64,000 bases of DNA from a virus: the IMG/VR virus record IMGVR_UViG_3300044695_002580, positions 1-64,000 of that record. One strand, 5' to 3'. Position 1 is the stretch's first letter. Each line of letters opens with the position of its first letter. Below, one piece after another: positions 9,317-25,192 of this stretch. The translations under genes were made by a program, and so were the position numbers. The notes beneath the pieces were generated by a model. That model worked only from the letters and a program-made list of their open reading frames with translations. It searched no databases and was not told where the DNA came from.

Positions 9317-9541
9317 TTAGTCCTTATACTTATCTGGGATACCCCAAGCACCACCAGGTGCTGGACGTGTTACCTTTACATCTTCCATACCTCTGCCTCT
9401 TGCAGAGTTAACACTATCAGCAAGACGAGCACGTAGAGGCTCGCCCCAATGCTCTGCACCATTACCTTTTGTTCTAGGCTTTGAACCTGCAGGATGAACT
9501 CCTACTAACGCGCTAAACTGACCACCGTCTTGATAGTTCAT
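9317..9541 (-). CDS. hypothetical protein
   Basis: ORF with ATGA overlap. Confidence 0.55.
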   Translation of the reverse strand: MNYQDGGQFSALVGVHPAGSKPRTKGNGAEHWGEPLRARLADSVNSARGRGMEDVKVTRPAPGGAWGIPDKYKD

Positions 9542-9831: not shown

Positions 9832-10103
9832 TAGCAGTCCCACGCTCTCAATGACTTGTTAATACGGCTATTAGGGTCTTTAGCGGTCTTAGCGCTAGTG
9901 TTGACCTTCTTCATACCTTCCATACGTGCACAGAATGATTTACGACGTGCAGCAGACTTAGGTGACTTCTTAGCCTGTTCTTTTTTAACAGGAGGTTTTA
10001 AATTAGAACCAGGGTTAGCCTTCTCATAAGACTTACGGCCCTTCTCATTAAGACCGCCTTTAGCGTTCTTACCCTCTTTGCGTGTCCATGCTTCTGATGC
10101 CAT
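9831..10103 (-). CDS. conserved basic phage protein
   Basis: GGLNEKGRKSY...RRKSFCARM...SRINKSLRAWDC motif widespread in phages. Confidence 0.65.
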   Translation of the reverse strand: MASEAWTRKEGKNAKGGLNEKGRKSYEKANPGSNLKPPVKKEQAKKSPKSAARRKSFCARMEGMKKVNTSAKTAKDPNSRINKSLRAWDC

Positions 10104-12247: not shown

Positions 12248-12334
12248 CCTGAGAGCCTCGGCGTGTCGCCTTTCCTGTGAGTTTCTAGGTTGTCGGCGTG
12301 TCGTGTAGGTGGGTGGGTGGCTATCTAGTAGCCT
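12248..12334 (+). promoter_or_regulatory. early-type promoter cassette P1
   Basis: CCTGAGAG 12248 + GGCGTGTCG 12260; CCTGTGAG 12274 + GGCGTGTCG 12295; -10 TAGCCT 12329. Confidence 0.75.
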
Positions 12335-12373
12335 TATCCCACGCCACCAGATAGGGGGCAAAAAGGGGGAATA

Positions 12374-12670
12374 ATGAAAACTATCAACCAAAAGCAAGCG
12401 GTTCAGGCTATCGCTAACCTAGAACCTTTCAAGGCGGGCTCACTCACAGGTGAGTGGGTTCGTGTCTCATTCTACTCAGGCAGACTCAGCGTGAGCCACC
12501 CTGAGTTAGCCAATCTATGCGAGACACTCAACAAGGGCGAAAGCGCCTATGTCGTGTTCTCATACTTTACGCCTATCGCATACGCCACAGAAAAGTGGCA
12601 CACAGTAACCGAAAAGTTCTCACCTACAACATCACGCCATCAATCCATAGTTAGAAAGGCGGTCGCATAA
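12374..12670 (+). CDS. hypothetical early protein
   Basis: SD GGGGGA; YVVFSYFTPIA...FSPTTSRHQ motif common in phage early genes. Confidence 0.7.
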   Translation: MKTINQKQAVQAIANLEPFKAGSLTGEWVRVSFYSGRLSVSHPELANLCETLNKGESAYVVFSYFTPIAYATEKWHTVTEKFSPTTSRHQSIVRKAVA

Positions 12671-12945
12671 TGGAAATGGAAAAGGCAAAAGTTCATCAGT
12701 TCTTGCGCTCTCTCAATGGCAAGTTCTTCACAGTGGAATTCATCAAGCGCACGACGGGGGAGGTTCGCGTAATGCGAGCCACCACCAACTACGAAAGCAA
12801 GTTAGCGGGAGGGGACTTAGGTTACGACGCTAACGAAAAGGCTCTCATTCCAGTATGGGACTTAGAAAAGAAAGCTTTCCGCTCAATCCCAACGGACGCG
12901 GTAGTTCGTATAGTAGCCCTAGGGAATACATACGAAATCAAGTAG
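12670..12945 (+). CDS. WYL-like/SH3 beta-barrel protein
   Basis: FTVEFIKRTTGEVRVM...VWDLEKKAFRSI pattern. Confidence 0.6.
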   Translation: MEMEKAKVHQFLRSLNGKFFTVEFIKRTTGEVRVMRATTNYESKLAGGDLGYDANEKALIPVWDLEKKAFRSIPTDAVVRIVALGNTYEIK

Positions 12946-12950
12946 GACAA

Positions 12951-12976
12951 GAGGCGCGGACTTCCCCCCGCGCCTC
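12951..12976 (+). terminator. 3' hairpin with pyrimidine (anti-SD) loop
   Basis: GAGGCGCGG/CCGCGCCTC stem, loop ACTTCCCC. Confidence 0.6.
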
Positions 12977-13073
12977 TCTCGATTCCCCGTAGGGGAATGG
13001 GGAGGGTGGGCCAACACAAACATAAGAACGGCATAGGGACTGGCAAAGGAACCCCAGGAATAATAAAGAGAAT

Positions 13074-13189
13074 TCTGTGAGTCGGGCGTGTCGGCTTGAC
13101 ACCCCACGCGGTCGGGCGTGTTGCCAATCCTGTGAGTTTTTAGACTTTCGGCGTGTCGCATTGTATCTATCAGGGCTATCAACTAGATT
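13074..13189 (+). promoter_or_regulatory. early-type promoter cassette P2
   Basis: TCTGTGAG 13074 + GGCGTGTCG 13085; GGCGTGTTG 13115; CCTGTGAG 13129 + GGCGTGTCG 13150; TTGTAT-17-TAGATT. Confidence 0.8.
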
Positions 13190-13219
13190 TATCTTATGAA
13201 CAGAGGGGGGGTGATTATT

Positions 13220-13522
13220 ATGGAAAACACAGAAAGCACTACCGCTATCGCGGAAATGTGGCAAGGTAGCGATGTTACTCGCCTAGTAGGCGCTAACGCA
13301 ACACTAACCAATGTCCGCACTGGTAGCACTATCACGGGGCGTATTACAAGCGCGAAGGTCAGCACTATCGCTAAGGACTCTGACCTTTATGTCGAAGGTC
13401 TATCTTTCGTCAGCGAAGTCAAGGTCGAAGGTATCTACGGGTCATTAGACCTAGCGACACCATTCATCAGCGACTGGGCACGCAAGTCGTATGACCACTG
13501 GCTAATCAACATTCAGGCGTAA
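13220..13522 (+). CDS. hypothetical early protein
   Basis: SD GGGGGTGA upstream of ATG 13220. Confidence 0.65.
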   Translation: MENTESTTAIAEMWQGSDVTRLVGANATLTNVRTGSTITGRITSAKVSTIAKDSDLYVEGLSFVSEVKVEGIYGSLDLATPFISDWARKSYDHWLINIQA

Positions 13523-13529
13523 GCCGCAA

Positions 13530-13556
13530 GGGGCAGGTGCTTCCCCCACCTGCCCC
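13530..13556 (+). terminator. intergenic hairpin
   Basis: GGGGCAGGTG/CACCTGCCCC stem, loop CTTCCCC. Confidence 0.55.
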
Positions 13557-13591
13557 ACTAATAACACTACTAGGGGAAAGGGGGGGACATC

Positions 13592-13753
13592 ATGGAAGTA
13601 GACCCACGCTATGCGATGGCTCAAGTCTATAAAGCTTTACGCGGTAAAGCAGAATTGACTGACCAGTTCACTGATGAAGTGAACAATTGCAACGGCCCAG
13701 CCGATGCATTCAAAATCTGCATGAAGTACCTATCGTTAGCAAACGCTTCATAG
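13592..13753 (+). CDS. small hypothetical protein (53 aa)
   Basis: Manual ORF MEVDPRYAMAQVYKAL... with strong G-rich SD. Confidence 0.6.
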   Translation: MEVDPRYAMAQVYKALRGKAELTDQFTDEVNNCNGPADAFKICMKYLSLANAS

Positions 13754-13759
13754 GTTGTT

Positions 13760-13787
13760 CAGCCCCGCGGCCGTTCCCGCGGGGCTG
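13760..13787 (+). terminator. GC-rich hairpin
   Basis: CAGCCCCGCGG/CCGCGGGGCTG. Confidence 0.55.
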
Positions 13788-13851
13788 GCGCAGTTTGTGT
13801 TGGCCCGCCCACCCCGTTCTATATTTATATAGGGAGTTAGGGAAAGAGAAT

Positions 13852-13912
13852 CCTGTGAGTTTCTCAGGATTCGGCGTGTCGCATTGATTGCTATCTACGC
13901 ATAGTTTAGAGT
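13852..13912 (+). promoter_or_regulatory. early-type promoter cassette P3
   Basis: CCTGTGAG 13852 + GGCGTGTCG 13873; TTGATT-17-TAGAGT. Confidence 0.8.
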
Positions 13913-13949
13913 TCCACTAGTAGCCAAGGGGGCTACGGGAAAGGGATAT

Positions 13950-14204
13950 ATGTCAGAAAAGTACTATTCTACTGGTAGGGATTTAACTATCTCAATGGTA
14001 GAAATCAAGGCTAACTCAATTGAGGAAGCCGAAGCGGTTATGCAACGATTCATAGATGTAATTAGTGAAGTTATGAAGGACGATGTACGCTGGGATGAAG
14101 CGGACTGGTCCATTCAAGAAAATACATTAACGGCAGAAGGTATCTACGAAGTTACCGACGAGTATGACTACCATAAGGGTCATAGAATAATTGAGGTGGC
14201 ATAA
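13950..14204 (+). CDS. acidic hypothetical early protein
   Basis: SD AAGGGA; VEIKANSIEEAE motif. Confidence 0.65.
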   Translation: MSEKYYSTGRDLTISMVEIKANSIEEAEAVMQRFIDVISEVMKDDVRWDEADWSIQENTLTAEGIYEVTDEYDYHKGHRIIEVA

Positions 14205-14350
14205 TGTGTTTTAAATGTGGGACTACGCAAGACGGTAATATTGTGCACAGTGGGACCGACGCATTCTGCCTCGGGGTAATCGAACACGTAGGGCGCATAT
14301 GCTATGACTGCGCTAATAAGGTTAACAAGAAGGAGCAGGTAAATGCCTAA
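14204..14350 (+). CDS. small Zn-finger protein (48 aa)
   Basis: Manual ORF MCFKC...ICYDCAN; TAATG coupling. Confidence 0.55.
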   Translation: MCFKCGTTQDGNIVHSGTDAFCLGVIEHVGRICYDCANKVNKKEQVNA

Positions 14351-14540
14351 TGAAATCATCTTCTACAACGGTTTCAACCTACTCGTGGATATCATCATCG
14401 CGGTCACCGTTGGATTCTTTGCCTACAGGTCAGGTAAAGCTTCAGGTTATATCCAAGGTTACGGTGAAGGTGAAGAAGACTATCGTGACAGTCTCGAACG
14501 ATACGCCGACTACGCGTACGAGGCCAGCCGCGAGCGCTAA
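14343..14540 (+). CDS. small single-TM protein
   Basis: SD AAGGAG; hydrophobic helix followed by GYIQGYGEG. Confidence 0.6.
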   Translation: MPNEIIFYNGFNLLVDIIIAVTVGFFAYRSGKASGYIQGYGEGEEDYRDSLERYADYAYEASRER

Positions 14541-14610
14541 CAAGTTTCTCGTAGACGTGGTTCCAGACTAGGACGTCCGCCACTTATACGTGAATGCATA
14601 ACCCCCTCAG

Positions 14611-14643
14611 GGCCCCAGTGGATATCCCTTCCCCACTGGGGCC
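14611..14643 (+). terminator. intrinsic terminator with anti-SD loop
   Basis: 11-bp GC stem, loop ATATCCCTTCC, followed by TTTT. Confidence 0.7.
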
Positions 14644-14669
14644 TTTTGCTTGCCCTATTAAACGAGAAT

Positions 14670-14751
14670 GTTTGTGTTGGGGCTTATGGGCGTGTGTGTA
14701 TAAACATTTCGATATATATCTTCATATACACACATAAGCCCCAACACAAAC
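14670..14751. repeat. GTTTGTGTTGG-bounded long hairpin, copy A1
   Basis: 19-bp perfect inverted repeat plus inner 8-bp stem. Confidence 0.85.
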
Positions 14752-14755
14752 CTTT

Positions 14756-14848
14756 CCTGAGAGTCGGGCGTGTCGCCCTGGTGCAATCCTGTGAATAATA
14801 AGACTATCGGCGTGTCGCTGATAAGGCTGAGAGATAAGAGTCTAGTAT
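14756..14848 (+). promoter_or_regulatory. early-type promoter cassette P4
   Basis: CCTGAGAG 14756 + GGCGTGTCG 14767; CCTGTGAA 14788 + GGCGTGTCG 14809; -10 TAGTAT 14843. Confidence 0.8.
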
Positions 14849-14893
14849 TAGGGCACGCGAGACGGTCTCGCGAATTGAAGGGGGGTGTGCCTT

Positions 14894-15901
14894 ATGGCGC
14901 ACGACTTGGAAATGGAGAACGGCGAGGTTGCCTTCGCGCTACGCGGGGCACCCGCTTGGCACGGTCTAGCAAACCGCACATTCTCCGCTGATGAGCATGT
15001 CTCAACTGCAGACATGCTCTCTGCTGCAAAACTAGACGGATGGAATGTCCGCCTAGAGGATGCGATTTATCCTGAAGGATACCGCACCAACTCTGACCTA
15101 TTCATGGTCACACGCACCAATCCATTCGATGCGGGCACTGACGTGCTTGCAATCGTCGGTAAGCGTTACCGCGTATTCCAAAACGAGGATTTATTCACCT
15201 TCGGTGATAACATCCTAGACGGTGGCGCATCATGGGAGTCTGCTGGCTCCATTAAAAACGGCAAGGTAGTCTTTGGCTCCCTAGTCGTACCTCGCGAGTT
15301 CATTCTCGACCCTAACGGCGCTGCTGATAAGACTACTACTTATCTGCTCGTTCATACATCACACGATGGCTCTGCATCAGTTCAAGCATCCATTACTCCA
15401 GTTCGCGTGGTCTGCCAAAACACGCTCCATGTCGCACTGAATAACACCAAGAGTTCATTCAAGTTGCGCCATACTCTCAAGGTAGAGGGTCGCGTTGCTG
15501 AGGCTCGCATGGCTCTTGGTCTCACCTTCAATTACATGGATGAATTCGAATCCATCGCTAAGTCTCTCTTTGAGACTCCAATGAACGCCGTTCAATGGGA
15601 TAAGTTGATTAACACAATTTACCCTAAGCCTGATGCTAACCAAGCGCCACAAGTGAGCACCAAGTGGCAGGCTAAGCGCGACCTACTGGATGATATTTAC
15701 TTCCAGTCTCCAACCCAGACCAACATCAAGGGCAATTACTGGGGCGCCCTCAATGCACTCACTGAGCGCATCGATTACTTCCGCACTGGTCGCACCGCCA
15801 ATGGCGAGGCGCTCATCGGAGCAGCCAGTGGGTTCGACCCAGTGGTCAATGCGGAAAAGTCCCGCATCCTCCGCGCCGTCCGCGAGTTAGCGAGCGCGTA
15901 A
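14894..15901 (+). CDS. DUF932/TIGR03299-family phage-plasmid protein
   Basis: MAH...PAWHGL, QNEDLF, ESAGSI, SHDGS, TPVRVVCQNTL, WGALNALTE motifs. Confidence 0.85.
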   Translation: MAHDLEMENGEVAFALRGAPAWHGLANRTFSADEHVSTADMLSAAKLDGWNVRLEDAIYPEGYRTNSDLFMVTRTNPFDAGTDVLAIVGKRYRVFQNEDLFTFGDNILDGGASWESAGSIKNGKVVFGSLVVPREFILDPNGAADKTTTYLLVHTSHDGSASVQASITPVRVVCQNTLHVALNNTKSSFKLRHTLKVEGRVAEARMALGLTFNYMDEFESIAKSLFETPMNAVQWDKLINTIYPKPDANQAPQVSTKWQAKRDLLDDIYFQSPTQTNIKGNYWGALNALTERIDYFRTGRTANGEALIGAASGFDPVVNAEKSRILRAVRELASA

Positions 15902-15908
15902 GCCTACT

Positions 15909-15936
15909 AAGCCCCCCGCATCCAGCGGGGGGCTTT
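15909..15936 (+). terminator. intrinsic terminator
   Basis: AAGCCCCCCGC/GCGGGGGGCTT followed by T. Confidence 0.65.
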
Positions 15937-15957
15937 GGCATGCTCAAAAGAAGCTGA

Positions 15958-15978
15958 TTATCCACAGCCTGTGGATAA
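15958..15978. promoter_or_regulatory. inverted pair of perfect DnaA boxes
   Basis: TTATCCACA-GCC-TGTGGATAA. Confidence 0.75.
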
Positions 15979-15980
15979 GT

Positions 15981-16070
15981 GTTTGTGTTGGGGGCTTACT
16001 GAACAGATACTAATACAAGGTATAGGTAGCGTTCATAACAGCACCTATACAGTAAGCCCCCAACACAAAC
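15981..16070. repeat. GTTTGTGTTGG-bounded long hairpin, copy A2
   Basis: 20-21-bp perfect inverted repeat, inner GTATAGGT/ACCTATAC stem. Confidence 0.85.
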
Positions 16071-16080
16071 CTTAGAGTCG

Positions 16081-16174
16081 GGCGTGTCTGAGAGTGTGGC
16101 GTGTCTGCTTTCCTGTGAGTTTTAGAGATTATGGGCGTGTCGTGAAAGAGATAGCAGACCCCTATGGTTAGATA
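16081..16174 (+). promoter_or_regulatory. early-type promoter cassette P5
   Basis: GGCGTGTCT at 16081 and 16098; CCTGTGAG 16112 + GGCGTGTCG 16134; -10 ambiguous. Confidence 0.7.
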
Positions 16175-16248
16175 CTCGTAGTGGAAATACCACTATTAGA
16201 GAGAAGGAGAAATCCAATGCTTGATAACCCAATCAAGGAACGACTCTA

Positions 16249-16710
16249 ATGATGAAGGGGGGTGATACTATCTTTACACGCAACAACGCTCAACTCATTG
16301 AGCAACAAGCCGTTCGCAACCCTATGGTTGATGGACAATACTTTACCAACATGACCGAACTACTTTGGTCTGATGGGACTATTACATTCGGTTGCCTCAA
16401 GTGTGGCGAACAAACCGAAAGCCGACCACAACTATCTATCCATGTGGGCAAGGCACACAATCCAAAGCCTGCTAAGACTACTAAGACTATTAAGTATAAA
16501 GCGGTCAAGGCAACAGGCACACGACCATACACCAAGCGCAACAAGGAATACTGGGCAAATGGTGGCAACATCAACCAAAATCGTAGAACAACAACCGACT
16601 CTACTCTAGCCGATAAGGAACTAGAGTTTTGGAAGGCGCAAGCGCACCGAGCAGAGGCTGAACTCCGCAAGGTAAAAGCGCAACTAAAAGCCCTACTAGA
16701 CATAAAGTAG
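16249..16710 (+). CDS. C2H2 zinc-finger protein with C-terminal coiled coil
   Basis: C-x2-C-x12-H-x4-H (CLKCGEQTESRPQLSIHVGKAH); start could be ATG 16249 or ATC 16270. Confidence 0.65.
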   Translation: MMKGGDTIFTRNNAQLIEQQAVRNPMVDGQYFTNMTELLWSDGTITFGCLKCGEQTESRPQLSIHVGKAHNPKPAKTTKTIKYKAVKATGTRPYTKRNKEYWANGGNINQNRRTTTDSTLADKELEFWKAQAHRAEAELRKVKAQLKALLDIK

Positions 16711-16790
16711 GCAGGGTTTCTCACCCCCCGTGAGATAGCACCTGAGCAAGTGGCTAAAAGGCTCACCACCAACTAACGAAGGGTAAGAAA

Positions 16791-17189
16791 GTGGCAACCA
16801 CTATAAAAGTAGATAGGCTAGTCCTATTAGATGCTCTACAAGTAAAATTGGCAGAGCAAGATAAACTCCGTGCCGAATACAAAAAGGCTGAGGAGAAATA
16901 CAAGAAAGAGCAGGAAGCCTTTGCTGATAAGGTTCTAGCATTGGCTAAGTCAGGCAAGTTAGAGGTTCATAGAGTCAATACCCGCACCTACAACGGCGGG
17001 CTGATTGAGGTTGAGTGGAAGGCTGACCGCGCACTCATCAACTCCGAACCACAGAGTCCTGACCGACCTGAGGGCTGGGTTCATGAAAGCGATTATGAGG
17101 AACTCCGTAAGACTATCAGATTGCTTAGCATGACGACAGAGCCTTATGTTCCTGCCTCAACTTATCGCGCAGTATCACAATGGCTTTAA
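16791..17189 (+). CDS. coiled-coil hypothetical early protein
   Basis: GTG start with purine-rich leader; helical charged sequence. Confidence 0.65.
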   Translation: MATTIKVDRLVLLDALQVKLAEQDKLRAEYKKAEEKYKKEQEAFADKVLALAKSGKLEVHRVNTRTYNGGLIEVEWKADRALINSEPQSPDRPEGWVHESDYEELRKTIRLLSMTTEPYVPASTYRAVSQWL

Positions 17190-17304
17190 TAGCATAGGGC
17201 TATTAAACACTCCTGAGCATGAGTATAAAAGGCTTCACCTTTGACATAGGGTGCTTTCGTAAGGGGTAGGACTATTATCTCCATTCTAGTCCTCCCGTGT
17301 TGTC

Positions 17305-17340
17305 AATAAGCCCCCCGCCTGTGGAGTCGGGGGGCTTATT
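17305..17340 (+). terminator. intrinsic terminator
   Basis: AATAAGCCCCCCG/CGGGGGGCTTATT. Confidence 0.7.
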
Positions 17341-17427
17341 GTTTGTGCTGGGCTTGCTGTAATAAGTAGCTATCACGGTATAGGTACGGATTTCATCTCT
17401 GCCTATACCAGCAAGCCCAGCACAAAC
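17341..17427. repeat. GTTTGTGCTGG-bounded long hairpin, copy A3
   Basis: 18-19-bp perfect inverted repeat with compensatory changes relative to A1/A2; inner GGTATAGGT/GCCTATACC stem. Confidence 0.85.
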
Positions 17428-17430
17428 TTT

Positions 17431-17515
17431 CCTGTGAACTCGGGCGTGTCGTATCCTGTGAGTTTTGGAGAACTCGGGCGTGTCGCTTTGGTGTGGAGAG
17501 AGATGAGAGTATTGT
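17431..17515 (+). promoter_or_regulatory. early-type promoter cassette P6
   Basis: CCTGTGAA 17431 + GGCGTGTCG 17443; CCTGTGAG 17455 + GGCGTGTCG 17477; -10 TATTGT 17510. Confidence 0.8.
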
Positions 17516-17543
17516 TCGCCTTACCCAATAGAAGGGGGTATGT

Positions 17544-18065
17544 ATGAACAGTTTAGAACGCAAAGAGCGTTTTACAGAACTGATGGCAACGATAGAGTTG
17601 TTGCCTAGTGTAGATGATGAAAACTACGAGCCTGTATTTCCTAAGGGAACACTAGGCTTATCAGATGGCAACCTCAAGACCGCAATCATGGCACAGGCTA
17701 TGAGAGGTGATGAGGACTTCGTTGGTAATCTTATCAACGCGCTCGCCAACACAGGCTTCGAGGCTTGCCACGCCAAGCATGAGGCTGATGAAACACCTAA
17801 CGACGACGACCTCTCCGCTATCACACTAGCAATCCATGTAGCGTGGGCGAGTGGCGCACTAGCCCCTATGCTACTCCTATTAGGTGGCATGGGTAAGATG
17901 TTATCTGCCCTAGATGTAGATGTGCCTGAGGATTTGCCACTCATTTTCCGTCCTAACGGCTTGATGGCTGATAAGGCAGGTAAGTTCGACCCGATAGCCC
18001 TACTAGACATGGATAAGGCTAGCCTTATCAAATACATGGCAAAGGAGTTGGGTGATGACGACTAA
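17544..18065 (+). CDS. acidic helical hypothetical protein
   Basis: SD GAAGGGGG; 173-aa ORF. Confidence 0.65.
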   Translation: MNSLERKERFTELMATIELLPSVDDENYEPVFPKGTLGLSDGNLKTAIMAQAMRGDEDFVGNLINALANTGFEACHAKHEADETPNDDDLSAITLAIHVAWASGALAPMLLLLGGMGKMLSALDVDVPEDLPLIFRPNGLMADKAGKFDPIALLDMDKASLIKYMAKELGDDD

Positions 18066-18276
18066 AATTGTAGATGGCGTAAAGATGGTAGAGGTGCCCT
18101 TCACAATTACTTACAATGTCCTCGTAGAGGAGCACAAGTACCTAGAGTATGTAACTTCGGGTATCCCAGTAGGTGCTATGGCACAGGCTGGTAAAGAAAC
18201 CCTATTAGATGTAACCAAGCCTGTTATAGATAAGGCTAATGAAAACTGGACAACTATGATGGTAGAGGTGGCGTAA
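18052..18276 (+). CDS. hypothetical protein
   Basis: SD AAGGAG; overlaps upstream gene. Confidence 0.6.
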   Translation: MMTTKIVDGVKMVEVPFTITYNVLVEEHKYLEYVTSGIPVGAMAQAGKETLLDVTKPVIDKANENWTTMMVEVA

Positions 18277-18791
18277 TGGGTATGGATGTCTATGGTACTA
18301 AGCCTACTAGCGAGAAGGGCGAGTATTTCAGAAATAACGTGTGGTGGTGGCGACCACTATGGGATTACTGTGAGCATGTAGCGCCCGAACTGTGTGAAGG
18401 CGTGAGTGCCCACTACAACGACGGAGATGGATTAAATGATGAGAAGGCCAAGGCGCTCTCTAAAATCCTTCTAGAAACCCTATCAGATGGCAGATGCCTA
18501 ATCTATGAGGCGCAGTACAACCTAGAGGTCTCGCAACTTCCTAATGAGGACTGCAATATATGTGATAAGACTGGCATACGCACCGACGAGGTGGGTAAAG
18601 AGCACGGCATGGATGTAAAAGCCCTATCAGATGATGAGGCTATCGTGTTAGGAAGGGAAACGGGCTGGTGTAATGGGTGTAACGGTCTTGGTTGGAAGCC
18701 AAACTGGGCAACTCACTATCCATTCTCGCGTGAGAACGTACAAGAGTTCGCAGAGTTCCTAGCAGAAAGTGGTGGATTCAGTATCTGCTAG
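18276..18791 (+). CDS. conserved phage early protein with Cys pairs
   Basis: MGMDVYG...GEYFRNNVWWWRPLW...FLAESGGFSIC family pattern; CNIC and CNGCNG. Confidence 0.7.
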   Translation: MGMDVYGTKPTSEKGEYFRNNVWWWRPLWDYCEHVAPELCEGVSAHYNDGDGLNDEKAKALSKILLETLSDGRCLIYEAQYNLEVSQLPNEDCNICDKTGIRTDEVGKEHGMDVKALSDDEAIVLGRETGWCNGCNGLGWKPNWATHYPFSRENVQEFAEFLAESGGFSIC

Positions 18792-18876
18792 GGTTACCCC
18801 CTTCAACTAATCCACCAAATAGGGCTAGCAAGCACCAGCTTGCTGGCCCTATCTCTTTGCCTGGCGGCGGCAGCAG

Positions 18877-19019
18877 AGTTTGTGTTGGCCCACCCATCGC
18901 TCATAATGTATTCAATTATACATTATTCGCTTTCCCACCCTTTATGACCTTTTTTAATATAAAAAAGGTCATTCTGCCCATTGGGCTATTGGCTTTAGCC
19001 ATATAGCCCAACACAAACT
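18877..19019. repeat. multi-stem variant of the GTTTGTGTTGG hairpin family
   Basis: AGTTTGTGTTGG/CCAACACAAACT closing three internal hairpins. Confidence 0.7.
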
Positions 19020-19043
19020 GTGGCGCATATCACATGAGAGATT

Positions 19044-19094
19044 CCTGTGAATACGGCGTGTCGGCTTGAGAGAGAAAGAGAGAGAGAATAGGCT
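19044..19094 (+). promoter_or_regulatory. early-type promoter cassette P7
   Basis: CCTGTGAA 19044 + GGCGTGTCG 19055; TTGAGA-17-TAGGCT. Confidence 0.75.
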
Positions 19095-19135
19095 AGGAGA
19101 TTTGCCGTTTCGGCTACTGCCACCCTAGCAGGGGG

Positions 19136-19151
19136 TGTGACCGCGCTCACA
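19136..19151. promoter_or_regulatory. CRP/GlxR-type box
   Basis: Perfect TGTGA-N6-TCACA; a one-mismatch copy TGTGG-N6-TCACA lies at 19019-19034. Confidence 0.6.
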
Positions 19152-19238
19152 GCCAGATTTAATAGCCCTATCTGCAAGGACTATGCGGATAATAGGCTTA
19201 TTGGAGAGAGAGGCAGGTATAAGTTACTCATGGGTAAC

Positions 19239-19299
19239 TCTGTGAGTTTTAGGGGGTATCGGCGTGTCGTCTTTAATATAGATAGAGAGTCACTACGCT
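19239..19299 (+). promoter_or_regulatory. early-type promoter cassette P8
   Basis: TCTGTGAG 19239 + GGCGTGTCG 19261; -10 TACGCT 19294. Confidence 0.75.
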
Positions 19300-19342: not shown

Positions 19343-20875
19343 ATGACTACCAACCTTGCGTTGCTCGTAGTGAGCAACACCGAACTAGAGGGGATTCCTG
19401 CACAGGCGCAGACTCTCCTTATTGGAACAGATACCGAGGTCTTAGGGTATCACCGCGTATCAAATGGTGCGAAGGGTCGAGGACAGGCGTGGCAGGTAAT
19501 GTCCGACCTTCCTACTAGCCCTATCTCACACTCTCCCGTTGCCGTCGTATTAAGCGACCGCGACCTAGTAATGCTTCAACTAGGGCAGATTACCAATGTC
19601 GGTATCAAAGCCCTATACGCCCTAGAAACCGCACCAACGGCTTCCGCGTCCTTCCCACACAATGAGGCAGTAGATAACCTTATCAAGCGCCTAGAGGAAG
19701 GCGACTCCACCCTTGCCGAGTTTATTGCAGATAAGCGACGCACACAGGCAGTAGATATTAAGCCTATCAAGCAGGGTGTATTACCAATTTCGGCGAACGC
19801 GACCGCGCCCGTCGTGCCTAACAAGCCTATTACTATCGAGGCTAATAGGACTATAAGTGACTCACTCGTCAATGCTATGGTGAGCGTACCCGACAAGGCG
19901 TTTAGTAAGGCTTATATCAACCGCAAGGTCGTAGGCGGTCTTACCGACTTCGAAATTATGGACTTCGCCATGAAGTCGAGCAAGAACGTACTTATCGAGG
20001 GTCACGCAGGTAGCGGTAAGACGGCTATGGTACAGGCGTATGCGTCTGCACGTGGATATCGGTATTTTAACGTCGCTTGCCATATTGGATTAGAGGCTTC
20101 ACACCTAATCGGTCGTTGGATTCCTACTCCCGAAGGACACTTCCGTTGGCAGGACGGCGCAGTTACAGAGATAGTCCGTAATGGTGGCGTACTCCTATTT
20201 AACGAGATTAACTTCGCACCCGAGCGTTTTCTCACCTTTATCTTTAGCCTATTAGATTACCGTCGTGAGATTCAACTCATGGAAAATGGTGGCGAGGTTA
20301 TCAAGGCTCACCCCGACCTACTTATCGTGGCAGATATGAACCCCGACTACCGAGGCACACGCCCACTCAACCAAGCGTTAGCCGACCGCTTCCCCGAGCG
20401 TTTGGTATTCCCATACGATAATGCTATCGAACAGAAGTTACTCGGTAGCAAAGCCCTATTAGATATGGCGAACCAACTCCGTACCGAGTTTGATAAGGGT
20501 ACTATCAACACCCCTATCTCTACCCGTAATCTAGTAGCCTTTGCAGATAACGCTAAGGCGCTAGGTATGGACTTCGCCACCTATTGCTATATCAACTCCT
20601 TCGAGGGAGATGAGGAACGTAGTGCAGTAAGACTATTACTCACCACTCACCGCGACAATATCGCTAGTGACTTCGGGCTACCAACCCTTAATAAGGCTAC
20701 CTTTGGCAATTCAAATACCGAACAAGCCATATTAAATACAGAAGTAGGCGCACAGATTGACGGCTTCGAGTCGCTAGTGCAGGACTCAACTCCCGAACTC
20801 AACGATATCCATGCAATAGATACCTTTATCAACGCACTTAATAACCCTATTGACGACGTGGTAGGTAGCAACTAA
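19343..20875 (+). CDS. MoxR/CbbQ/CobS-type AAA+ ATPase
   Basis: Walker A GHAGSGKT, Walker B variant LLFNEIN, MNPDYRGTRPLNQALADRF, STRNL. Confidence 0.85.
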   Translation: MTTNLALLVVSNTELEGIPAQAQTLLIGTDTEVLGYHRVSNGAKGRGQAWQVMSDLPTSPISHSPVAVVLSDRDLVMLQLGQITNVGIKALYALETAPTASASFPHNEAVDNLIKRLEEGDSTLAEFIADKRRTQAVDIKPIKQGVLPISANATAPVVPNKPITIEANRTISDSLVNAMVSVPDKAFSKAYINRKVVGGLTDFEIMDFAMKSSKNVLIEGHAGSGKTAMVQAYASARGYRYFNVACHIGLEASHLIGRWIPTPEGHFRWQDGAVTEIVRNGGVLLFNEINFAPERFLTFIFSLLDYRREIQLMENGGEVIKAHPDLLIVADMNPDYRGTRPLNQALADRFPERLVFPYDNAIEQKLLGSKALLDMANQLRTEFDKGTINTPISTRNLVAFADNAKALGMDFATYCYINSFEGDEERSAVRLLLTTHRDNIASDFGLPTLNKATFGNSNTEQAILNTEVGAQIDGFESLVQDSTPELNDIHAIDTFINALNNPIDDVVGSN

Positions 20876-22743
20876 TGGGTCGCTACGATAGCCACGACGA
20901 CCTACTCGATAGGCTTATTGAACAGACACGCGAGGCTAATTGGCGTGACGATATCGAGTACGACAAAGAACTCGAACAGGAACGCCTAGAGGAACATATC
21001 AACAAATTACAGGCGGTGGGTGCGGTCTATGGTCGCACCGACCGTATCCTCACCGCCGAGCCAGTAGAGGTACGTGTCGAGGATAATAAGGAAATGGATA
21101 CGACCGCCTACAATGACGGCAAGAATATCGTGTTCAATGCTCACCTTATCGAGGACGTAGATGATAAGACTATTATCTCTCTCAACGGCTTCAACTACCA
21201 TGAGGTCGGTCACGTCCTTTACTCACCTAGAGGCGGTAGCGAGTTTGGTAAGACAGTTAAGCGCGAGAACCTAGAGAAAGCCTTTAACGTCCTAGAGGAC
21301 GCTCGTATCGAACGCCTACTAATCGCAAAGTATCCTGCCGTTGCACCCTTCATGGAAGCCTCATGCCTAGAGTATCTACTCAAGGGTGACTCCGCAGAGT
21401 TTGGTGCGTACTTCCCACTATTTACGGGTCGTAAGTATTTAGATATAGAATTGCGACAGGAAATTGCAGATAGGTTTATTAAAGACTTCGGCGTAGAGTT
21501 AGCCGTTGCTATCGCGTCTATCGTGCATGAGTACCGAACTCTCGTATATCCACGCGACTTCCATAGAGGACTCGAGTTACTACGTGCTATGGCAGATATC
21601 GTCGGTCGAGAAGTAACTAACGAAGTTAATGATAAGCCTATTCTACCCAACGGTAACGGCGGTCATATCGACCGCGACGTACAGGACAAGGGGCGCATGA
21701 AGGGCGACAAAGAACAGAAAGCCCAACAAGATAAGGCTACCAACAACGAGTCGGGCGACGGCGCAGGGGAACAACTAGACGACCCTGCCGACACAAATAC
21801 CGAGAACGACCGCAATAGCACCAGTTTCTCTAGCAAGGGTAAGGACGAAGCCGACGACAACGTGCTACGTAAAGATATCCAAGAACGACTAGATAACCTT
21901 AGCAAGAAGGACGACGTACAACAGGGTGCGCGTGAAGTACGCAAGGCTATCAACGACAACAATGAACGTCGTAGTGCTATTAAACAAGGCGCTTACTCCA
22001 ACCAACAGGTATCTCCACAGGTATCTGCGAGCGCCCGAGCCTTCGGCGTAGCCCTAGAGCGTGTCCGTATAGATAACGACCCTATGTGGGAGTTAGAGCA
22101 ACCTATGGGGCGCTTAAATATAGGACGTGCCATGAGAGCCGATATCAACGACATGGACAAAGTGTTCGACCGTTGGAGTGAGGGTAACTCCAACAATGAT
22201 ATTGACGCGATAGTCCTAGTAGATACTTCGGGCAGTATGTCGTGGCAGATTCAACGCACTATGGAAAGCGCGTGGGTAATCAAGCGCGGTATCGAGCGTA
22301 TCAACGGTCGCGTATCGGTCTATAAGTTTAACCACGATAGTAGGCTTATCTACTCCGCTACCGATAAGGCTCAACCAACCGAGTATCGCTACGTCAATTC
22401 CTCGGGTGGCACTAACCCTTACAAAGCCCTATTAGAAGCACGTCGCCAACTATTAAATAGCAAGCGTGGAGTGCGTATGCTATTTATCGTCACCGACGGC
22501 GAGTGGGATATGACCGAGGACAACAATAAGATTATTAGCGACCTCACTAAGGACGGAGTGCAGACTTCGGTGGTCTATCTAGGTAGCCTCAAGGGTTGGG
22601 GCGAGTATGACCGAGCAGAGCATGACGCACGTGTAGAGCGTTACCGTCATGGTGCTAAGCACTTCCGCGAGGTCGAGGAACCTAATCAAATGGTGCTAGT
22701 CGCTAAAGATATCGTCAAAGCGACTATGAGCGCCCGTCATTAG
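20875..22743 (+). CDS. VWA (MIDAS) protein with N-terminal HExxH metallopeptidase-like domain (CobT-like)
   Basis: YHEVGH, NVLEDARIE, DTSGSM, GGTNP, IVTDGE. Confidence 0.85.
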   Translation: MGRYDSHDDLLDRLIEQTREANWRDDIEYDKELEQERLEEHINKLQAVGAVYGRTDRILTAEPVEVRVEDNKEMDTTAYNDGKNIVFNAHLIEDVDDKTIISLNGFNYHEVGHVLYSPRGGSEFGKTVKRENLEKAFNVLEDARIERLLIAKYPAVAPFMEASCLEYLLKGDSAEFGAYFPLFTGRKYLDIELRQEIADRFIKDFGVELAVAIASIVHEYRTLVYPRDFHRGLELLRAMADIVGREVTNEVNDKPILPNGNGGHIDRDVQDKGRMKGDKEQKAQQDKATNNESGDGAGEQLDDPADTNTENDRNSTSFSSKGKDEADDNVLRKDIQERLDNLSKKDDVQQGAREVRKAINDNNERRSAIKQGAYSNQQVSPQVSASARAFGVALERVRIDNDPMWELEQPMGRLNIGRAMRADINDMDKVFDRWSEGNSNNDIDAIVLVDTSGSMSWQIQRTMESAWVIKRGIERINGRVSVYKFNHDSRLIYSATDKAQPTEYRYVNSSGGTNPYKALLEARRQLLNSKRGVRMLFIVTDGEWDMTEDNNKIISDLTKDGVQTSVVYLGSLKGWGEYDRAEHDARVERYRHGAKHFREVEEPNQMVLVAKDIVKATMSARH

Positions 22744-22755
22744 AACAAGTGTTCG
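22742..22755. promoter_or_regulatory. possible Gram-positive-type SOS (LexA) box
   Basis: AGAAC-AAGT-GTTCG. Confidence 0.35.
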
Positions 22756-22758
22756 GAA

Positions 22759-22782
22759 GCCCTGCCCGATACAGGGCAGGGC
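22759..22782 (+). terminator. hairpin after VWA gene
   Basis: GCCCTGCCC/GGGCAGGGC. Confidence 0.55.
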
Positions 22783-22816
22783 GACCGACTTTAATACGGA
22801 AGTAGAGGAAACAAAT

Positions 22817-22972
22817 ATGGAAACAACGCTAGACTACAAAGAACGGCTACGCGCCCTAATCGCAGAAGCAAAGGGTCACGTAGAAGCACACAACTCAACC
22901 AACGAGTATCTAATAAACCTACTAGATACCGCAACCGACTATCTATTCTACCTAGAGGACACCAGCAAATGA
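22817..22972 (+). CDS. small hypothetical protein (51 aa)
   Basis: Manual ORF METTLDYKERL...; SD GAGG; ATGA overlap. Confidence 0.55.
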   Translation: METTLDYKERLRALIAEAKGHVEAHNSTNEYLINLLDTATDYLFYLEDTSK

Positions 22973-23280
22973 CCAGCACAAACCTACTACCAAAGACAGG
23001 TCAATATAACGACCTTGCACTTAAATATATAAATGGCGACCCCGACGCAATAGCCTTATTAGATACGGTTATCGGGTCGTCGCTAGACTTATGCGCCCTG
23101 CGTAATAACCAAGATGAACGCCTAACCAACTACTTCGAGTACCACGACGTACGCGGTGAGATAGATGAGGCTATCGACAGTATCGAACCTCATGCAGATA
23201 AGTTAGGCTTACGAGCGCCTATCCTTGACGAAGCAGATGAACGCGACCTAGAGAACGGTTATGGACTAGACGGTATCTAA
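22969..23280 (+). CDS. acidic hypothetical protein
   Basis: ORF with SD GAGGA. Confidence 0.6.
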   Translation: MTSTNLLPKTGQYNDLALKYINGDPDAIALLDTVIGSSLDLCALRNNQDERLTNYFEYHDVRGEIDEAIDSIEPHADKLGLRAPILDEADERDLENGYGLDGI

Positions 23281-23414
23281 TGCGCCTATCAAAGACGAGA
23301 GAGCAACTCCGCCGTATGCTAGAGTTACGGCGGAGTAATGCTTCCGTACCTATCCGTAATAAAAAGAGATACACTAGGAAACTTAAATATAAAGATAAGG
23401 ACTTAAATGAGTAA
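23280..23414 (+). CDS. small basic protein (44 aa), ArfA-like tail
   Basis: Manual ORF MRLSKTREQLRRMLELRRSNASVPIRNKKRYTRKLKYKDKDLNE. Confidence 0.55.
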   Translation: MRLSKTREQLRRMLELRRSNASVPIRNKKRYTRKLKYKDKDLNE

Positions 23415-23856
23415 CAACGAGGAAATCTACGACGCAGAAGTTATTTACGACAGCGCCACCGACTCCACCACCGCCACCACCGAGGGCGAGATAATTGATA
23501 TAGAGGAACCAAGCGATTATTGGAAACTCGTAGCCTTCCACCTACAAAATAATCACAACCCAAGTATTCCTATTAGCATGACCGACGTATGTATTAAGGC
23601 TATCGAATACGCTAACAAGAAGGATTGGGGCGTACTAATAGCCCTACCCGACGGAACTACCTACAAGGGAAGCACCCATGCAACAGTAGAAACTATCGTG
23701 GAGAGCCACCACCTTCATAACTTTATTACCAGCGACCGAGAGGTCGTAACGATTAAGGACGCTGAAGGCGCGGTCATATATCAAGGTTATGGCACAGAAC
23801 TAAAATTAAATACAGAAACAAATACAGAAGTAGAGAGCGATGACGACCAACAGTAA
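23407..23856 (+). CDS. hypothetical protein
   Basis: HLQNNHNP...IALPDG...IVESHHLH pattern; SD AAGGA. Confidence 0.6.
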   Translation: MSNNEEIYDAEVIYDSATDSTTATTEGEIIDIEEPSDYWKLVAFHLQNNHNPSIPISMTDVCIKAIEYANKKDWGVLIALPDGTTYKGSTHATVETIVESHHLHNFITSDREVVTIKDAEGAVIYQGYGTELKLNTETNTEVESDDDQQ

Positions 23857-24229
23857 CCCCCAAGAAGAACCCCGCGGCGAAGAAATCGTCTGCGGGTGTC
23901 GAGGCAAAATGTGTGACGAGTGCCTTGATAAATATGGAATAGAGAAGTAGGAGAGAGCCATGCGTTGTGCTAAGTGTTTTATTGAATACGATAACGGCGA
24001 AGTTATTGCCCCTATCGACGAGAGTGCTATTGACGTATCAACCGAGATGGGTCTAGGATTCTGCGTGATGTGCGTACCGCCAGCAGGGAACCCTGCCCAA
24101 CTATAAGGAGAGAGAATTATGGACGAAACAACAGAGCCTACCTGCGGTTGCGGTAAGTGTGCTTGCGGTAAAGATGAAGGGTTAAAGATAGAACGACCAG
24201 CCGTATCTGAAATGGACGGCGTTAGTTAA
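23840..24229 (+). other. three Cys-rich micro-ORFs (23840-23950, 23960-24106, 24119-24229)
   Basis: Manual ORFs with CGC..CDEC, CAKC..CVMC and CGCGKCAC; the last two have GGAG SDs. Confidence 0.5.
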
Positions 24230-24657
24230 TGCAAACCTTTCTGCCATACGCAGACTTCAAACTAACCGCACAAGTATTAGACTATCGACGCTTAGGCAAA
24301 CAGAGAGTCGAAGCCTATCAAATAGTAAGAGTATTAGACGGCACTCAACAAAGTAACGCATGGCACAACCACCCTGCGGTGCTGATGTGGAGAGATAACC
24401 TAGACGCACTCAAGTCCTACGGGAGAGAGATATGCCTAGAGTGGATACGTCGTGGATATAACGATAACCTTATTACGCACTTCCAGCACAAACCCGCGCC
24501 CGACATGCCAGCGTGGCTAGGCGACGAGCGGATACATATATCACACCAAGCAAACCTAGTGAGAAAGTTACCCGAGCATTATAGGCTACACTTTCCCACA
24601 GTAGATGAAACTATGCCCTACCATTGGCCTATAACTAAGGAGAACCTACATGGCTAA
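24229..24657 (+). CDS. pyrimidine-dimer DNA glycosylase/DenV-like (MSMEG_6728 family)
   Basis: MQTFLPY...LDYRRLGKQRVEAYQI...HPAVLMW...SHQANLVRK. Confidence 0.85.
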   Translation: MQTFLPYADFKLTAQVLDYRRLGKQRVEAYQIVRVLDGTQQSNAWHNHPAVLMWRDNLDALKSYGREICLEWIRRGYNDNLITHFQHKPAPDMPAWLGDERIHISHQANLVRKLPEHYRLHFPTVDETMPYHWPITKENLHG

Positions 24658-24955
24658 AAAGACAGAGCGCACCTTCAAAGCAACCCTTATCAAGAACATG
24701 GAAAAGGGTGGCGCATGGAAGGTTACATACACAATTACCGAAGCACAAAAGAACGACCTCGGTACGTACGACAACGTGGAGATTGATAACATTACTACCG
24801 CTTGGTCTAACGCCAGCGCAGGTAAGCGTTGGATTAAAGAGAGAGTACAAAGCCTCACACCACGAAAGAGTGTGAAGCTCGAGGTTACGTCAGAGGACGA
24901 AAACGGCAAACCTATTAAAATTTCAGGTACTCTAATTTATAAGCAGGAGATTTAA
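24650..24955 (+). CDS. hypothetical protein
   Basis: SD AAGGAG. Confidence 0.6.
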   Translation: MAKKTERTFKATLIKNMEKGGAWKVTYTITEAQKNDLGTYDNVEIDNITTAWSNASAGKRWIKERVQSLTPRKSVKLEVTSEDENGKPIKISGTLIYKQEI

Positions 24956-24957
24956 AT

Positions 24958-25056
24958 ATGAGTTTCATTGAACCTATCGTTCCAGAGCCTCAATGGGGCC
25001 GTCCTAGCCCAGGTATCCCAGATGAAGAGATTTATGACGACGATGATGAGGACTAG
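24958..25056 (+). CDS. acidic micro-protein (32 aa)
   Basis: SD AGGAG; MSFIEPIVPEPQWGRPSPGIPDEEIYDDDDED. Confidence 0.5.
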   Translation: MSFIEPIVPEPQWGRPSPGIPDEEIYDDDDED

Positions 25057-25192
25057 ATTAAACTTAGATACCCTAGTTAAACTTTACAAACGCAATAGTC
25101 GTACAAAATGGATAGCGTGCCACCACTGCGGTCGTATGTTTATAGTTGATAAAAGAAATGTAAGAGTCGATACCTTGTGTGGCTCATGCTAA
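25043..25192 (+). CDS. small Zn-ribbon protein
   Basis: CHHC...CGSC. Confidence 0.45.
   Translation: MMRTRLNLDTLVKLYKRNSRTKWIACHHCGRMFIVDKRNVRVDTLCGSC

Follow-up and report, generated by a model that had tools for sequence, protein, structure and literature searches.

Complementarity between the 3' end of a phage early transcription unit and the ribosome-binding site of its first gene, a candidate for icaR-like closure

Known long-range closures of ribosome-binding sites and the unit F locus

Pairing of the 3' end of a bacterial mRNA with its own ribosome-binding site (RBS) is known from very few genes (icaR, hbs). Here, we analyze unit F, a group of three early genes (F1 to F3) of an uncultured freshwater phage, in which ten nucleotides (nt) past the last stop codon, referred to as the F element, are complementary to the Shine-Dalgarno sequence (SD) and the spacer in front of the first gene, F1. 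The stretch of DNA analyzed, the window, comprises the first 64 kb (positions 1 to 64,000) of the IMG/VR virus record IMGVR_UViG_3300044695_002580, which encompasses 96,881 bp and is rated complete. A sequence-only reading of the window had proposed that its early transcription units end in hairpins displaying the complement of their own SD region; it had listed five such pairs, compared them with the fold-back inhibition of hok-type toxin mRNAs and named a pulse timer for toxic early genes, or else protection of the 5' end, as conceivable roles.

In the hok/sok system the full-length mRNA is kept translationally inert by an interaction of its 3' element, fbi, with tac at the 5' terminus. Activation needs trimming of the 3' end, and the antisense Sok RNA as well as the mok reading frame belong to the system. 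The proposed fold-back of the F element onto the 5' part of the full-length mRNA resembles this arrangement. However, the comparison fails on the defining contact, because fbi pairs with tac whereas the F element is complementary to an SD, and for unit F, known here from sequence alone, no 3' trimming, no antisense promoter or RNA and no mok-type frame were seen. In phage MS2 the RBS of the replicase gene is masked by a distant segment of the coat gene and is opened by translating ribosomes, resulting in a positive coupling. Similarly, in unit F ribosomes would open a phage RBS that is otherwise masked by a complementary segment far away. While the MS2 partner is located in an upstream coding region of genomic RNA, the partner in unit F is located in the 3' untranslated region (UTR) of an early mRNA of a double-stranded DNA (dsDNA) phage. 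Phage Q-beta provides a further case for comparison regarding long-distance masking of an RBS (PMC2978339).

The analogy to hok is loose, as the partner of the F element is the SD and not a 5'-terminal element, and a closer precedent is the icaR mRNA of Staphylococcus aureus, in which the sequence UCCCCUG of the 3' UTR pairs with the SD UAGGGGG of the same mRNA, as proven by compensatory mutants (PMC3868564). It was shown that this pairing blocks ribosome loading, creates a substrate for RNase III and promotes mRNA decay; whether it acts in cis or in trans was left open by the authors (PMC3868564). As in icaR, a pyrimidine-rich anti-SD motif past the last stop codon of unit F complements the SD of the same unit, and the support is two-sided in both cases, coming from mutagenesis for icaR and from natural co-variation for unit F. 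Unit F differs from icaR in that it consists of three cistrons and belongs to a phage, in that its element lies directly past the last stop codon while the icaR motif is located 260 nt downstream, and in that the duplex would span the SD and the spacer over up to 10-11 nt.

For Bacillus subtilis it was shown that 8-mers resembling the anti-SD, introduced as synthetic substitutions hundreds of nt further downstream, base-pair with the RBS, inhibiting initiation and accelerating decay; native genes are depleted of such sequences (Gill et al., bioRxiv 2025, PMC12697547). In contrast, the F element is native, conserved and co-evolves with the RBS, implying that it is used. As anti-SD-like sequences repress and are depleted from native genes (PMC12697547), a conserved and co-evolving element of this kind is unlikely to be neutral. 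C-rich regulatory loops are known from small RNAs as well. The icaR study cites the UCCC loops of the S. aureus RNAs RNAIII and RsaE as such (PMC3868564), and in the cuckoo/CcsR RNAs the CCUCCUCCC loops are kept while the stems vary (PMC4615179). The loop of unit F similarly mimics the anti-SD tail of 16S rRNA and complements the SDs of several mRNAs (D1 over 10 nt, G1 and E1 over 9 nt each). It differs from these separate small RNAs, which have 2-4 repeated hairpins with one common motif, in being a single C-rich loop at the end of an mRNA, the flanks of which are matched to particular RBSs, and in having no match in Rfam.

The kind of mechanism is already known and its occurrence in a phage early operon is new: our literature searches retrieved no description of such a pairing for an early operon of a dsDNA phage. 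Finding about nine co-evolved solutions in such an operon provides strong comparative evidence for the use of the contact, and it suggests that phage 'terminator loops' can hold regulatory information. Moreover, the pairing could help to explain how the expression of early phage genes is timed without proteins. With a 10-bp duplex and an mRNA of 1.3 kb, unit F is a compact system for further study, in which the natural variants serve as compensatory mutants.

Unit F in the window and in related phages

Between 12.2 and 25.3 kb the plus strand encodes a series of short gene groups, A to G (Table 2). Every group has repeated promoter-like boxes upstream and a G-run SD at its first gene, and most of them are followed by GC-rich hairpins as well as by a long palindrome, the arms of which are conserved. 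We infer from this arrangement that the groups are transcription units and the hairpins their terminators. In unit F, all ten nucleotides of the F element match the F1 RBS (10/10), covering SD and spacer from -13 to -4 relative to the ATG. The element is the unique longest complement to the F1 RBS window in the whole 1.3-kb transcript, with the two partners 1.25 kb apart. It is displayed in a hairpin, the closing stem of which uses the last codons of F3 as 5' arm. The 93-nt 3' end of the unit folds into two hairpins with -46.9 kcal/mol (z = -8.0), and when the presumed full-length transcript (17487-18858) is folded by partition function, the SD of F1 pairs with 18795-18804 with a probability of ~1.0. 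Reading the sequence around the 10-mer revealed no extended homology, so that a leader module copied in inverted orientation does not by itself account for the element. A role of the complement as RBS of a minus-strand gene was rejected, as no start codon follows it on that strand. The proteins F1, F2 and F3 (173, 73 and 171 aa) have no match to a Pfam or PHROG family.

All ten strings of the five pairs listed by the sequence-only reading are present at the positions given there. Their complementarity is perfect for pairs 1, 2, 3 and 5 (7, 9, 9 and 10 nt of Watson-Crick pairs) and not for pair 4, the longest exact run of which has 5 nt. Likewise, the 3' strings lie in hairpin loops for pairs 1, 2 and 5 but not for pair 3, in which TCAC belongs to the stem and the loop consists of the C-run alone. 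The background level was determined as the fraction of windows of the same size, in 567 kb of DNA of this and the related phages on both strands, that contain a complement at least as long. It amounts to 0.086 for pair 1 (unit A), 0.007 for pair 2 (unit C), 0.005 for pair 3 (E1/E12), 0.95 for pair 4 (E0/E3, 16203/17275) and 0.001 for pair 5 (unit F). Pairs 2, 3 and 5 stand out, pair 1 is not above background, and pair 4 is due to chance.

A megablast search of GenBank phages retrieved no near relative of the region. Syntenic relatives were obtained by protein-anchored searches from IMG/VR and metagenome contigs only, all from freshwater samples, and their F1 proteins are 35-100% identical to F1 of this phage. 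In 12 related metagenomic phages the 50 nt that follow the last stop codon contain a complement to the F1 RBS, by about nine distinct sequence solutions (Table 1); besides the element of this phage, orthologous elements are present in 11 other lineages. Both sides of the pairing differ between the lineages. Several of the solutions run through the spacer up to the start codon and are therefore unlike a generic anti-SD motif. In 10 of the 12 lineages the element starts 1-10 nt past the stop codon, in the lineages L016 and L043 at 23-38 nt. Several lineages retain the closing stem of the hairpin and show some changes in both of its strands. In L016 the F3 gene was lost while hairpin and element were kept, which likewise supports selection.

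Table 1. RBS of F1 and complementary 3' element of unit F in this phage and its relatives.
Lineages	F1 RBS	3' element	Match
This phage, L020, L052	GAAGGGGGTA	TACCCCCTTC	10 nt
L021/22	GAAGGGGGTA	TACCCCCTTC	9 nt
L024/25	GAAGGGGGTA	TACCCCCTTC	9 nt, or 10 with a G-U pair
L049/L051	AAGGGGGTA	TATCCCCTT	one G-U pair
L059	AGGGGGTA	TACCCCCT	8 nt
L019	GAAGGGG	CCCCTTC	7 nt
L016/17/31/58	GGAGATACTA	TAGTATCTCC	10 nt
L034/62/64	AGAAAGGGGA	TCCCCTTTCT	10 nt
L043/66	GAAAGGGG-TATG	CATACCCCCTTTC	bulge
L060	AAGGGATAAGG	CCTTATCCCTT	11 nt
L061	CCAAAGGG	CCCTTTGG	8 nt
L046	AGAGAGG	CCTCTCT	7 nt

Three different tests bear on whether this complementarity might arise by chance. On permutation of RBSs and elements among nine lineages, the observed own-lineage sum of the longest Watson-Crick runs was reached in 85 of 200,000 permutations (p ~4e-4), and in 411 of 200,000 with G-U pairs allowed. 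The empirical window frequencies range from 5e-4 to 6e-2 per lineage, and combining the six distinct solutions by Fisher's method yields 5.8e-10, an estimate that is conservative because the background includes true elements. Furthermore, each transcript was scanned for the longest complement to the RBS window, beginning at codon 2 and ending 50 nt behind the stop codon; the post-stop window makes up 4% of this length. The unique best complement to the RBS lies in the post-stop window in 8 of 12 lineages (binomial 3e-9, a value qualified by the lineages not being fully independent), and in L043 both tied best complements fall into it. Judged by these comparisons of sequences, chance is excluded for unit F, and the natural co-variation supports a selected pairing of its 3' end with its own SD region. 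The check for co-variation in related phages suggested by the sequence-only reading came out positively for unit F in permutation, Fisher and location tests and tentatively for E1, while 3' anti-SD pairing as a general rule for all units is not supported by the sequences compared.

Several observations weigh against a cis-acting pairing of unit F at the RNA level. In L067, the most distant lineage, the 50 nt past the stop codon contain no complement to the F1 RBS. The match is only 7 nt long in L019 and L046, and in L049 it comprises only 6 Watson-Crick pairs (9 with one G-U pair). The start codons of L034 and L060 were chosen after inspection of the sequence. The nine-lineage permutation is much weaker by duplex energy than by run length, as the observed value was reached in 7083 of 200,000 permutations (p 0.035). 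In nested folds of five diverged orthologues of unit F long-range pairing appears only in L034 (P 0.53), and in the other four the SD pairs locally in the nested partition-function fold; these negatives are weak, because a contact between loop and SD forms a pseudoknot, which is beyond a nested method. A comparison of G-U and A-C extensions does not favor plus-strand RNA over a DNA-level or antisense reading. As these extensions carry no strand information, the RNA-level reading rests on the position relative to RBS and stop codon and on precedent. A scan for consensus promoters and terminators did not exceed the level of shuffled sequences, and the GC-rich hairpins were not called as terminators. 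Finally, in several lineages the element fits the RBSs of D1 and G1 about equally well, so that cis action on F1 is not uniquely indicated.

Within the window, the claim that pairing inside the own unit ranks top stood for the longest run (p=0.028) but not for RNAduplex energy (p=0.27) when units were permuted; with the E1/E12 choice of the sequence-only reading the values are 0.002 and 0.058, respectively. In the matrix of exact runs, the F loop matches the SD of D1 over 10 nt (TTGAAGGGGG), equal to its match with F1, and matches G1 and E1 over 9 nt each. The E12 element matches the SD of B1 over 9 nt, equal to its match with E1, and the SD of A1 is matched equally well by its own element and by the elements B12, F and G. 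Unit C alone has a uniquely best own-unit match in this matrix, and by hybridization energy the own-unit match wins for unit C only. Units B, D and G have no comparable 3' element, and the hairpin loop downstream of B1, CTTCCCC (13540-13546), fits A1 better than B1. The unit-by-unit co-variation within the window is only marginal and unconvincing on its own, because the comparison of own-unit with cross-unit matches is mixed and cross-unit matches are equally long. An automated own-versus-cross test of all units in ten genomes, in which units were delimited by palindrome arms and gene starts were crude, was not significant (Stouffer Z 1.43), with unit F always being the outlier.

Possible modes of action of the F element

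In our estimation it is reasonably probable that the tail of unit F (18795-18804) pairs with the RBS of F1 on the same transcript, forming an icaR-like 5'-3' anti-SD closure. The pyrimidine-rich anti-RBS would be shown in the loop of the hairpin ahead of the terminal GC-rich hairpin and would base-pair with SD and spacer of F1 1.25 kb upstream. Once the transcript is completed, the tail may close on the RBS, lowering translation initiation and probably also the stability of the mRNA, by analogy to icaR and to the B. subtilis constructs. The mRNA would then be translated mainly before its 3' end is made, or as long as ribosomes still reach the last stop codon. Speculatively, ribosomes terminating on the last cistron might transiently melt the pairing and thereby reopen the site; that terminating ribosomes should do so follows from the element starting 1-10 nt past the stop codon in most lineages. 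An extended version, which we hold to be rather unlikely, is a termination-sensitive closed loop, in which each round of translation reopens the first start while an idle mRNA locks, and in which the tail in addition cross-talks with D1 and G1. If true, closed loop and cross-talk would represent a protein-free RNA network timing early gene expression.

A serious rival to a pure cis fold-back, to which we give a tentative place well below it, is that the 3' hairpin of unit F mainly acts in trans, or on read-through RNA, as a multi-target anti-RBS regulator of D1, F1, G1 and perhaps E1. Either the F mRNA itself or a 3' UTR fragment processed from it might do so, by which the timing of the whole early regulon would be set, comparable to the C-rich-loop small RNAs of Gram-positive bacteria or to the cuckoo/CcsR RNAs. 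The claim that the elements are specific only for their own unit is indeed too strict, as across nine lineages the F element co-varies also with the RBS of D1, encoded two units upstream of F (288 of 100,000 permutations), and with that of G1 in the next unit (70 of 100,000). As an example, TTGAAGGGG in this phage stands against CCGAAGGG in the L016 group, where the F element reads CTTCGG instead of CTTCAA. The element of the L016/L017/L058 group has two parts, TAGTATCTCC, which fits F1, and the adjacent CCCCTTCGG, which fits D1 and G1; in L043 the match with D1 (10 nt) exceeds that with F1. A side observation in L049 is a 10/10 complement between the 3' element CGTGTATCCC and GGGATACACG, which lies ahead of the SD in the leader of G1 (9481-9490, 9979-9988). 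Moreover, in the window the match has 10 nt for D1 and 9 nt for G1, the two-hairpin 3' end resembles a small RNA, and cuckoo RNAs bear anti-SD loops on variable stems (PMC4615179). The element may act on several early genes. However, complementarity in every lineage is seen for F1 alone, as D1 fails in L019 and L046 and G1 in L034 and L043; the RBSs of first genes are alike within a genome, so that some of what is observed for D1 and G1 may merely follow from this likeness, and an Rfam family match is absent.

A real pairing might also act positively or sense translation instead of simply braking it, which we consider improbable. The last stop codon would be brought beside the first start codon for a hand-over of ribosomes, or the 5' region would be shielded from RNases, and terminating ribosomes would reopen the site in each round. 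The location 1-10 nt past the stop codon in 10 of 12 lineages would place the element within reach of the terminating ribosome, given its established footprint size, and the closing stem has its 5' arm within coding sequence. For the hbs mRNA of B. subtilis, an interaction between 5' and 3' UTR is reported among the features controlling ribonuclease action (PMC5737220). Against this speak the elements of L016 and L043, located 23-38 nt past the stop codon, and the pairing covering the SD itself, which blocks binding of the 30S subunit in every tested case (PMC3868564, PMC12697547). We assign similarly little probability to the complementarity having no RNA function at all, being fortuitous between G-run SDs and C-run hairpins, an inverted repeat at the DNA level, as a site for recombination or protein binding, or a remnant of intergenic modules. 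The absence of an energetic advantage of own-unit pairs in the window (p 0.27), the non-significant test of all units in ten genomes (Stouffer Z 1.43), pairs 1 and 4 being at background level, the lack of a G-U over A-C bias and the intergenic regions being full of repeated modules are in line with this explanation. It conflicts with the exclusion of chance for unit F by three different tests, with solutions that are no G-runs and cover the spacer and the start codon, such as GGAGATACTA and AAGGGATAAGG, with a position fixed relative to RBS and stop codon, which is meaningful for mRNA only, and with the absence of extended homology around the match.

Other early units and their surroundings

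Next to unit F, a tail-to-RBS pairing may be considered for other units (Table 2). In unit E, the conserved E1 protein begins at ATC 16270, a codon that is ATG in L016/L018 and GTG in L046, and for this reason GGGGGGTGA is taken as the ancestral SD of E1. TCACCCCCC (16721-16729) complements this SD and equally that of B1. The C-loop hairpin directly past the E1 stop codon is kept in all relatives on differing stems, and L046 has another 9-nt solution, TAGCAGGGG / CCCCTGCTA, starting 2 nt past the stop codon. The empirical frequency of each of the two solutions is ~0.005, and a search of IMG/VR for further relatives of E1 retrieved no new lineage. A pairing of 16257-16265 with 16721-16729 is probable; with two 9-nt solutions its support is suggestive but thin.

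For unit C, L024 is the sole other lineage with C1; it has the loop AAATCCCTT and an unchanged SD, which brings the match down to 7 nt uncompensated. The loop of unit A, ACTTCCCC, is invariant in all lineages and its stem shows compensatory two-sided changes, while the SD drifts uncompensated (GGGGGAA, GGGGAA, GGGGAT, GGCGAA). Partition-function folds of units C and E of the window contain no long-range pairing, negatives that are weak due to the pseudoknot limit. For units C and A, a pairing of tail and RBS is possible but unproven, as judged by these sequences. Pair 4, with a chance level of 0.95, was rejected; its hairpin is missing in L012/L019 and L049.

Table 2. Features of the early region of the window, listed by position.
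Feature	Position	Strand	Remarks
A1 SD GGGGGAA	12365..12371	+	
Gene group A	12374-12945	+	
Unit A terminal hairpin	12951..12976	+	8-nt loop 12960-12967 with TTCCCC inside; fold probability 0.78
Gene group B	13220-13753	+	
C1 SD and spacer AAGGGATAT	13941..13949	+	
Gene group C	13950-14540	+	
Unit C terminal hairpin	14611..14643	+	11-nt loop 14622-14632 holds ATATCCCTT, 9/9 against C1 RBS
Gene group D	14894-15901	+	
Gene group E	16217-17189	+	
E1 SD GGGGGGTGA	16257..16265	+	inside longest open reading frame (ORF; ATG 16249), ahead of ATC 16270
Hairpin past E1 stop	16719..16735	+	stem TCTCAC/GTGAGA, C-run loop
Pair 4 loop TTATCTCCATTC	17275..17286	+	longest exact run with 16203-16212, 5 nt
F1 RBS GAAGGGGGTA, 5' partner	17531..17540	+	F1 ATG at 17544
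Gene group F (unit F coding region)	17544..18791	+	F1 17544-18065, F2 18055-18276, F3 18276-18791
Hairpin displaying F anti-RBS	18770..18816	+	loop closed by 18770-18781 / 18806-18816
Anti-RBS element TACCCCCTTC, 3' partner	18795..18804	+	begins 4 nt past F3 stop
GC-rich hairpin after F anti-RBS hairpin	18819..18852	+	presumed unit F terminator; loop ACCA
Gene group G	19343-25192	+	

Further observations concern these units. In front of E1 (window 16217-16272) a leader ORF of 10 codons (ATG 16217) ends in TAATG, overlapping ATG 16249. It is present in all close relatives with varying sequence, and the arrangement may point to coupled or non-canonical initiation. A motif, CCTGAGCA(A/T)G(T/A)G..AAAAGGCT(C/T)ACC, is found behind both E1 and E2 (16741-16768, 17211-17238) and recurs after E1 and/or E2 in L024, L022, L049 and L019. 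The terminal hairpin of unit A together with ~120 nt downstream of it (including ATTCCCCGTAGGGG.ATGGGGAGGGTGGG) is near-identical in all lineages while the preceding genes differ; this conserved non-coding module is located at 12946-13075 in the window, at 1183-1300 in L011 and at 1761-1880 in L012. Between B1 and B2, loop (CTTCCCC) and 3' arm of a hairpin (13530-13591) are predicted to pair with the SD of B2 30 nt downstream (P ~0.73), a predicted local alternative structure masking this SD. Neither L011 nor L012 conserves this loop.

The box GGCGTGTC occurs in 14 copies within 12.2-19.3 kb and once elsewhere in the genome, and CCTGTGA is a second repeated promoter-like box ahead of the gene groups. 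The promoter-like boxes TCGGGCGTGTCG and CCTGTGAGTTT (window 12260-19270) are replaced at the same positions in L012, L011 and L046 by CTGTGGATAAC..GT(G/T)AACA, which contains the DnaA-box-like sequence TGTGGATAA. By this comparison of sequences, the entire set of early regulatory boxes is swapped between lineages. DnaA-box-like sequences also form a perfect inverted pair, TTATCCACA gcc TGTGGATAA, at 15958-15978 between the hairpin of unit D and the next palindrome. Long palindromes lie between the units at 14671-14750, 15982-16070, 17340-17425 and 18879-19017, and unpaired half-sites are found at 13011 and 13794. The palindromes share conserved arms, GTTTGTGTTGG / CCAACACAAAC, that recur in all related phages, while their interiors are unrelated. 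A scan against Rfam yielded only sub-threshold miRNA-like matches on these palindromes, which might represent an RNase III site, a bidirectional terminator or a protein site.

Regarding the proteins encoded, D1 (window 14894-15901) is a DUF932 protein with ~52% identity to proteins of Streptomyces phages, and G1 and G2 (window 19343-22743) form a pair of an AAA_5 (MoxR/CobS-like) ATPase and a VWA (CobT-like) protein. These matches hint at an actinobacterial host.

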